Positions 13,678-13,784 of a stretch of 64,000 bases of DNA are shown piece after piece. Position 1 is the first letter of the stretch. Each line of letters begins with the position of its first letter. Origin of the DNA: Candidatus Puniceispirillum sp. (GTDB lineage Bacteria > Pseudomonadota > Alphaproteobacteria > Caedimonadales > UBA1908); the NCBI GenBank assembly GCA_013822015.1, contig PNJU01000002.1:128500-192499 (forward strand), written 5' to 3'. The notes below the pieces were generated by a model. The model saw only the letters and a list, made by a program, of their open reading frames with translations. It was not told the origin of the DNA and did no database searches. The position numbers were made by a program, and so were the translations under genes.

Positions 13678-13784
13678 TATAGCTAGAACAATTTAATTTG
13701 ATAACAGAAAACGAGGCAAGCGACGTGTATACGTATACACGAGCGGCGAGTGACGCATTATCAAATTATAATGGTTCGGCTATA
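13678..13784. repeat. 107 bp palindromic MITE/RPE-like element, copy A
   Basis: Matches 32694..32800 with 6 mismatches by hand alignment. Sharp boundaries TATAGC...GCTATA. Long imperfect terminal inverted repeats. Central perfect palindrome CGTGTATACGTATACACG. Lies between convergent genes. Confidence 0.85.

Follow-up and report, generated by a model that had tools for sequence, protein, structure and literature searches.

A 107-nt repeat that occurs twice in a 64-kb stretch of alphaproteobacterial DNA (64,000 nt, hereafter the window) is best explained as a MITE, that is, as a TA-duplicating, non-coding 105-bp transposon remnant that is moved in trans, and the probability of this reading is put at about 0.8. 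In the proposed mechanism, the element would be a 105-bp non-coding remnant of a DNA transposon whose 27-bp imperfect terminal inverted repeats start with TAGC (TATAGC together with the target TA). It would be mobilised in trans by a transposase encoded elsewhere, and its insertion at a TA dinucleotide with duplication of this TA would yield the 107-bp TATAGC...GCTATA unit. The enzyme would be a TA-specific DDE transposase of the cut-and-paste kind (IS630/Tc1-mariner type), as suggested by the analogy with RUP and IS630-Spn1.

Bacterial MITEs have been defined as A+T-rich elements of <200 bp with terminal inverted repeats, 5'-TA-3' termini, target duplication and long stem-loops (PMC2229807), and more generically as elements under about 200-400 bp without a transposase or other ORF (PMC2229807; PMC3184786). 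The generic features are found here in the size, the lack of an ORF, the terminal inverted repeats, the TA duplication (one site), the dispersed copies and the presence or absence of copies. The family is apparently new to the literature and belongs to a little-studied lineage of uncultured Caedimonadales (GTDB family UBA1908); a literature search returned no description of MITEs from either Holosporales or Caedimonadales.

Structure of the element and of its two copies in the window

The two copies, A and B (Table 1), are identical at 101 of 107 positions (94%) in an ungapped alignment and form the sole long direct repeat that the repeat finder detected in the window. The mismatches are located at element positions 14, 21, 31, 33, 40 and 55. 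Identity between the copies ends exactly at TATAGC on the left and at GCTATA on the right, and the flanks are unalignable beyond these edges. Both copies retain both arms of the terminal inverted repeats, which are 27 nt long, imperfect and complementary at 21 of 27 positions, and which follow the pattern TATAGC(T/C)...TTTGATAA. As read from the sequence, each of the six reading frames that run into the element is closed by a stop codon after at most 8 codons, and the element-encoded peptides of five frames had no match in a set of 5.8 billion proteins. The G+C content of the element is 38-39%, compared with 52% for the window.

Most of this architecture had been described in an earlier reading made from the sequence alone (the sequence-only reading): the two copies of exactly 107 bp with six mismatches, the sharp edges with unrelated flanks, the imperfect terminal inverted repeats of about 27 nt, the 18-bp central palindrome that is perfect in copy A and has one mismatch in copy B, and the lack of coding capacity were all recovered. 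Its statement that all mismatches lie in the left half holds for five of them, the sixth (position 55) being central. It had also named a larger segmental duplication, or flanks that align past the edges, as the finding that would speak against a mobile element; a segmental duplication was rejected, as identity halts precisely at the 107-nt edges.

The 27-nt arm pattern matches the window twice in its exact form and four times in its degenerate form. A chance origin of the copies is excluded, because only 0.00-0.01 matches are expected from shuffled sequences. No third copy, half-copy or extra arm was found within the 64-kb window. Among the motifs that were sought by eye in the element, namely IHF (WATCAANNNNTTR), CtrA (TTAA-N7-TTAAC), DnaA-box and CcrM (GANTC) sites, none fits.

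Table 1. Location of the element copies, of their parts and of associated features. Positions refer to the window unless a contig or locus is named; a dot marks features without strand.
Feature	Location	Strand	Remarks
Copy A, 107 nt	13678-13784	.	105-nt element plus second TA; intergenic
Left terminal inverted repeat, copy A	13678-13704	.	TATAGCTAGAACAATTTAATTTGATAA; 27 nt, 78% complementary to 13758-13784
Central 18-nt palindrome, copy A	13724-13741	.	CGTGTATACGTATACACG; matches its own reverse complement at 18/18
Right terminal inverted repeat, copy A	13758-13784	.	TTATCAAATTATAATGGTTCGGCTATA; same in copy B and L002
Stub, 21 nt	13657-13677	.	TATAGCTGGCACCATATGAAA; starts like an element terminus (TATAGCTGG...), abuts copy A
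Strain-variable segment (stub, copy A, TPR gene)	13661-16253	.	from comparison with L019 and L022
Copy B, 107 nt	32694-32800	.	equals family consensus; within conserved gene
Left terminal inverted repeat, copy B	32694-32720	.	carries one of the two target TAs (32694-32695)
Central palindrome, copy B	32740-32757	.	one mismatch, 17/18
Right terminal inverted repeat, copy B	32774-32800	.	carries the other target TA (32799-32800)
Interrupted gene, N-terminal 134 codons	32298-32702	+	stops at the element's TAG 32700-32702; NCBI hypothetical protein MBA4117676.1
Interrupted gene, C-terminal remainder (Y-LSWVIESKLPCTDPHLIAQILEGRLPSPVEDPVSWQDSD)	32799-32918	+	same frame, no stops or frameshifts
CAED1 copies	L002 7157-7263; L003 4365-4471; L004 7192-7298; L005 3768-3864		from pattern scan
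Second repeat family	L001 1559-1669; L006 2527-2636; L014 about 3560-3678; L010-L013		shares only the 27-nt right arm

Insertion of copy B into a conserved gene

Copy B is located about three quarters along a conserved gene of about 170 aa. The 134-aa ORF that ends in the element (100% identical to P0001) has 1168 homologues, nearly all of them 166-180 aa long, and more than 1000 homologues are uninterrupted (...NGGPEDYLSWVIES...). Across the insertion site the homologues read ...PVSPPPYLNGGPEDYLSWVIES..., whereas the window at the same site reads ...PVSPPPYLNGGPEDY (...NGGPEDY), followed by 35 codons with 3 stops and then by LSWVIES..., all in one frame. The stops that the insert carries in the frame of the host gene are TAG, TGA and TAA. 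Deletion of exactly 105 nt in silico, with a single TA left (GAC TA|T TTG), restores the ORF, and in a BLASTP alignment the restored product has 111/172 identities with its Caedimonadaceae homologue (P0002), with 0 gaps over the junction. As judged from this sequence comparison, copy B is a 105-bp insertion with a TA target duplication, and its empty site can be reconstructed from protein homology. The evidence for the TA duplication thus comes from one reconstructed site, that of copy B; from the copies alone it is unreadable, because every copy ends in TATA. The insertion of copy B is probably recent, given that copy B does not deviate from the family consensus and that the C-terminal fragment of the gene is still intact. 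Copy B offers a clean case in which a MITE truncates a gene and the TA duplication is recovered from protein homology alone. Gene truncation by a MITE is a well-known kind of event, and the present understanding of how MITEs work is left unchanged by it.

An insert within a gene whose net length of 105 nt corresponds to exactly 35 codons, in a host lineage (Caedimonadales/Holosporales-like) of intracellular Alphaproteobacteria, could also be viewed as a selfish element of the kind of the Rickettsia palindromic elements (RPEs), which would be tolerated in proteins through in-frame translation. This is extremely unlikely here, as the insert brings TAG, TGA and TAA into the host frame and cuts the protein at 134 aa, all six frames are closed near the element ends, and RPEs are defined by a conserved peptide that is fused in frame (PMC10969869). 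RPEs resemble the element in being palindromic, 105-146 bp long and inserted within genes by whole codons in intracellular Alphaproteobacteria (PMC2229807; PMC10969869); they differ from it in that they are read through in frame as a conserved peptide, whereas the element truncates its host gene. Membership in the RPEs was ruled out by the three in-frame stops and the host protein of 134 aa, and the kinship with RPEs that the sequence-only reading had drawn is not supported, as RPEs are translated in frame and the element has stops in every frame.

Several further observations were made around the interrupted gene. The reconstructed gene continues in the window (32919-33119, +) for about 65 codons beyond the stop of the homologues (...WQDSD followed by GDGEEAAEDNSV...); either the original stop has been lost or the lineage has a longer acidic tail. 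Homologues of the gene adjoin genes of the TraG/VirD4 type. Copy B and the gene that it interrupts are located a short way outside a pair of repeats derived from tRNA-Thr(TGT) (35814-35889, -), the 3' end of which is copied 1.5 kb downstream over 36 nt with 89% identity. These repeats (34257-34292 and 35806-35841) bracket a lone orphan ORF (34394-35482) that had no Pfam or NCBIfam match, and the pair looks like what remains of the att sites of an island that targeted the tRNA and has largely been deleted.

Distribution of the family in related genomes

Species-representative genomes were scanned with a degenerate pattern that fits all four arms of the window. This pattern scan detected four further full copies on four different contigs (L002-L005) of CAED1, a Caedimonadales MAG present in EBPR reactors (GTDB o__Caedimonadales f__UBA1908, 1.88 Mb, 52.8% G+C; PMC9723799). 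With copy B they share 92-100% identity, one of them has a 10-nt central deletion, and their flanks are common neither to each other nor to the window copies; the left flanks of the copies have nothing in common beyond TA. Copy B is 100% identical to the copy on CAED1 contig JAIUNT010000039 (L002), the flanks again being unrelated. Three of the CAED1 copies were re-found in the source metagenome by the metagenome scan. By following the MCP-PilZ gene that flanks copy A into relatives, a contig (L020) of a more distant relative (MCP 59% identical in protein) was reached; it starts inside a copy of 81% identity and carries a variant left element terminus at its other end. In total, seven full or near-full copies are present in three genomes. 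The proposal of the sequence-only reading that the repeat is a dispersed, non-autonomous MITE-like element is thus borne out by additional copies with unrelated flanks in at least two other genomes, and the TA target duplication that it had considered by the reconstruction at copy B.

The copies were found between convergent genes (copy A), within a gene (copy B), between tandem genes (L003), between divergent gene starts (L005) and 4 nt past a stop codon (L020). In the last case the stop is that of an esterase gene, and the window and L019 are without a copy there. Copy A accordingly has the position at convergent 3' ends that had been claimed for both copies, and copy B is instead sited inside a coding sequence. 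Two closer relatives (L019 and L022, about 88-90% nucleotide identity) have no copy beside the MCP gene, and a 19.5-kb locus of a relative (L021) has no copy. In plasmids and phages the 107-mer had no blastn match, and the scan of viral contigs gave 0 matches.

The majority of copies are found no more than a few hundred bases from a contig end, as expected of repeats that break assemblies. The element accounts for a mis-annotated short 'hypothetical protein' and for breaks of short-read contigs in these organisms. The near identity of copies in different genomes might be used to trace recent exchange of mobile DNA.

As a side observation, a 760-aa STAND NTPase-TPR protein encoded in the window (29864-32146, +) has diverged paralogues in CAED1 with 31-73% amino acid identity in segments (L005 3979-6276 and L004 1-1038), one of which starts 115 nt from an element copy. 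This is probably a coincidental co-location in variable regions.

The strain-variable segment around copy A

Copy A is located between the convergent genes for an MCP-PilZ protein (11594-13600, +) and a TPR protein (13918-15945, -). Collinearity of the window with the relatives L019 (about 88% nucleotide identity) and L022 (about 90%) extends to 13654-13660 (...GGGATATA), exactly where the 21-nt stub is located, and resumes at 16254. The 2.6 kb in between are replaced by unrelated, gene-less DNA of 809 nt in L022 and ~1.1 kb in L019, and neither an element nor a remnant of the TPR gene was found in this replacement DNA. For copy A these relatives provide no clean empty site, since they differ from the window over the full 2.6 kb around it. 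The comparison with empty sites that the sequence-only reading had proposed could therefore be realised for copy B, by reconstruction from homologues, and not for copy A. The stub that precedes copy A may be a remnant of another element end. The TPR protein of the segment has 675 aa and is secreted-looking.

Copy B represents the family consensus, and copy A departs from it at six positions, three of which (14, 21 and 55) raise the symmetry of the hairpin. As symmetry-raising changes are not predicted by random decay, this suggests that copy A stands for a separate, more palindromic subfamily rather than for decay.

RNA folding, terminator and promoter analyses

On both strands the element is predicted to fold as one long hairpin (-24 to -33.5 kcal/mol, z -3.7 to -6), the most stable of the family being that of copy A (-33.5 kcal/mol, z -6.05). 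Such a long hairpin is expected, because terminal inverted repeats together with a central palindrome must give one. In the alignment of the seven copies, 0 base pairs have double changes, and paired cells amount to 89.1% compared with 89.4% in shuffles. In L005 and L020 the right arms are heavily altered and the opposite left arms are unchanged, with no compensation. Rfam 15 gave no match at gathering thresholds in the window and none at E<=5 in 13550-13950. At neither copy was an intrinsic terminator or SPRITE-like site, i.e. a G+C-rich stem with a U-tract, called.

These results bear on the explanation that the repeat is a structured non-coding RNA gene or a duplicated bidirectional intrinsic terminator. 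A stable hairpin is predicted on both strands and copy A does lie between convergent genes; with no Rfam match at E<=5, 0 compensatory pairs, a copy that breaks a coding sequence and other copies upstream of genes, however, this explanation is very improbable. The sequence-only reading had allowed for both roles as a second function of the element. Neither found support, the terminator for want of a G+C-rich stem and U-run at either copy, and the structured RNA given 0 compensatory pairs, pairing at the level of shuffles and no Rfam match at E<=5.

Each arm contains an outward-directed motif, TTATCA-N17-TATAnn, in which the terminal TATA forms the -10 hexamer and which matches the promoter consensus at 9/12 positions. 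This arm geometry is documented for Correia elements (PMC10969869; PMC2649163), one copy (L005) lies between divergent gene starts, and hairpin formation is strongly favoured (z -3.7 to -6), all of which would agree with a Correia-like regulatory cassette that is kept chiefly for a host function, with outward promoters and an RNase III-sensitive hairpin, transposition being its origin only. We consider such a role as the main reason for its maintenance unlikely: promoter matches of just 9/12 arise automatically from A+T-rich arms, copies are found in convergent, tandem, divergent and intragenic positions alike, and diverged copies lose their pairing without compensation. Under the MITE reading, outward transcription from the arm motifs and hairpins in read-through transcripts are possible side effects.

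Search for a transposase and class of mobility

A Pfam/NCBIfam scan of 40 ORFs of the window revealed no transposase or integrase and no Y1 or RAYT gene. A search for pairs of TATAG...CTATA 60-4000 nt apart with complementarity of >=17/26 in the collected sequences returned, apart from the MITEs, just two weak pairs attributable to chance in A+T-rich sequence, and no arms flanking a transposase-sized unit were detected in the pattern scans of species-representative genomes, metagenomes and viral contigs. The transposase with matching ends that the sequence-only reading had proposed to look for was found neither in the window nor in 22 related loci nor by the arm-pattern scans, and the collected sequences contained no IS630 copy.

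Some subgroups of the IS5 family also make 2-4-bp duplications, and TA duplication is not exclusive to IS630/Tc1-mariner elements. By analogy, we infer a partner of the IS630/Tc1-mariner type for exactly two reasons, the TA duplication and the resemblance to RUP with its IS630-Spn1 (PMC2229807).

Alternatively, a Y1 (HUH) transposase could mobilise the element in single-stranded form, either as a palindrome-associated element of the IS200/IS605 type or in the manner of RAYT-served REP/BIME-like units; the TA would then be a conserved motif for targeting or cleavage instead of the product of a staggered-cut duplication. In favour of this, the unit as a whole forms a single long hairpin, neither the scan of the window ORFs nor the end-pair search yielded a DDE transposase, and the terminal TA fits a duplication as well as a fixed flanking motif, the reconstruction establishing no more than two TAs with 105 nt between them. 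The complementarity, however, extends over 27 nt at the extreme termini, as in DDE elements, and there are no subterminal hairpins with asymmetric ends; the left flanks share the TA only, and no Y1 or RAYT gene is present among the window ORFs scanned. REPs are G+C-rich and 20-40 nt long (PMC2817692), compared with 107 nt and 38% G+C for the element. Taken together, mobilisation by a Y1 enzyme appears quite improbable. Membership in the REP/BIME class itself fails, as REPs are G+C-rich units of 20-40 nt that are often arranged in alternating clusters and are RAYT-associated, and the element consists of single units of 107 nt with 38% G+C.

Comparison with known repeat families

By architecture and by the TATAG(C/T) terminus, the closest analogues of the proposed MITE are the pneumococcal RUP and the short Correia elements of Neisseria; RUP is nearest in behaviour, and short Correia elements (CREE) are nearest in look. 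RUP, a MITE of IS630-Spn1 in Streptococcus pneumoniae that was compared by its description, likewise has 107 bp, terminal inverted repeats, a TA duplication and stops in six frames. It differs in its host, which belongs to an unrelated phylum, and in its terminal inverted repeats, which comprise 9 contiguous bp that match a resident IS, whereas those described here comprise 27 nt.

Correia elements (CREE or NEMIS) fall into size classes of 104-108 bp or 153-157 bp and have the arm consensus TATAG[CT]GGATTAA..., which was searched for with a criterion of <=3 mismatches (PMC2649163). The short form, of 104-108 bp, shares with the element long TATAG[CT] terminal inverted repeats, the TA target and the lack of a known transposase (PMC2649163). 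Correia arms also have a -35-like box with a -10 at the terminal TATA, and coding sequences are occasionally disrupted (PMC2649163; PMC10969869). In contrast to the element, which is alphaproteobacterial and without such a form, Correia elements have a long form that bears an IHF site and occur in Neisseria. Membership in the Correia family was rejected: the arms match four published patterns of 26-27 nt at 15-16/27 positions, with 11-12 mismatches, a value equalled by 20-44% of shuffles that keep TATAGC. The variant terminus at L020 4784-4812 (TATAGCTAAAGCACTTTAATTTCAGGACA) has TATAGC, TTTAA and TCAGGAC in common with a Neisseria Correia repeat (TATAGCGGATTAAATTTAAATCAGGAC), and the contig stops there. 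Among shuffles, 37/5000 were as good, i.e. about 5% after correction for seven arms, so that this resemblance is nominal.

Like the element, CIR and ERIC sequences are intergenic, about 110-127 bp long and have TA termini, and CIR is alphaproteobacterial (PMC2229807; PMC3184786). CIR, which is found in Caulobacter and Brucella and is associated with CcrM, is nevertheless without terminal inverted repeats and has GANTC, whereas the element has terminal inverted repeats and no GANTC. The terminal inverted repeats of ERIC amount to only about 7 bp, and its hosts are enterobacterial.

The right arm (24/27 positions) recurs at the end of a second family of repeats, which are about 120-130 nt long and belong to alphaproteobacterial MAGs and metagenome contigs of 40% G+C. 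In this family two unrelated hairpin modules, CCTCACGCC...GGTGAGG and GCGTCATTGTAAGCCCTGAAAGGGCGTGACAATCC, adjoin the arm, and both are similar to small palindromic repeats that are widespread. Three independent sites carry the family, one of them being conserved in five contigs. The right arm therefore behaves as a reusable module or solo end.

The identical copies in two genomes, the reuse of the arm (24/27) and the Correia-like variant terminus give rise to a broader reading, in which the MITE would be part of a wider, still-active superfamily of TATAGC-ended, TA-duplicating elements that move horizontally among protist-associated Alphaproteobacteria. We regard this extension as distinctly speculative and improbable. 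If the elements were true kin of Correia, an autonomous partner in these genomes could reveal the type of the long-missing Correia transposase.

Host organism and further genes of the window

The window is labelled 'Candidatus Puniceispirillum sp.' at NCBI, and its proteins are 100% identical to MBA4117676.1 and MBA4117658.1, which are encoded on a contig of 268,666 nt. The relatives that were found are, by contrast, a Caedimonadaceae MAG (P0002), CAED1 and, for MCP-PilZ, Ca. Bealeia. The genes of the window are in the style of a symbiont, with a T6SS sheath, ankyrin, TPR and STAND proteins, at odds with the Puniceispirillum label. The source MAG is probably a Caedimonadales/Holosporales-like organism, the label being doubtful.

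VipA/TssB and VipB/TssC are fused in a 631-aa ORF (16391-18286, +), a fusion that is also kept in the relative L022, and a gp25/TssE-like gene follows at 18986-19480 (+); other T6SS core genes were not recognised in the neighbouring ORFs scanned. At the beginning of the window, a cobalamin riboswitch (RF00174, 92 bits) is located at 758-983 (-), upstream of an ORF that extends past the window start and that looks like a TonB-dependent receptor.
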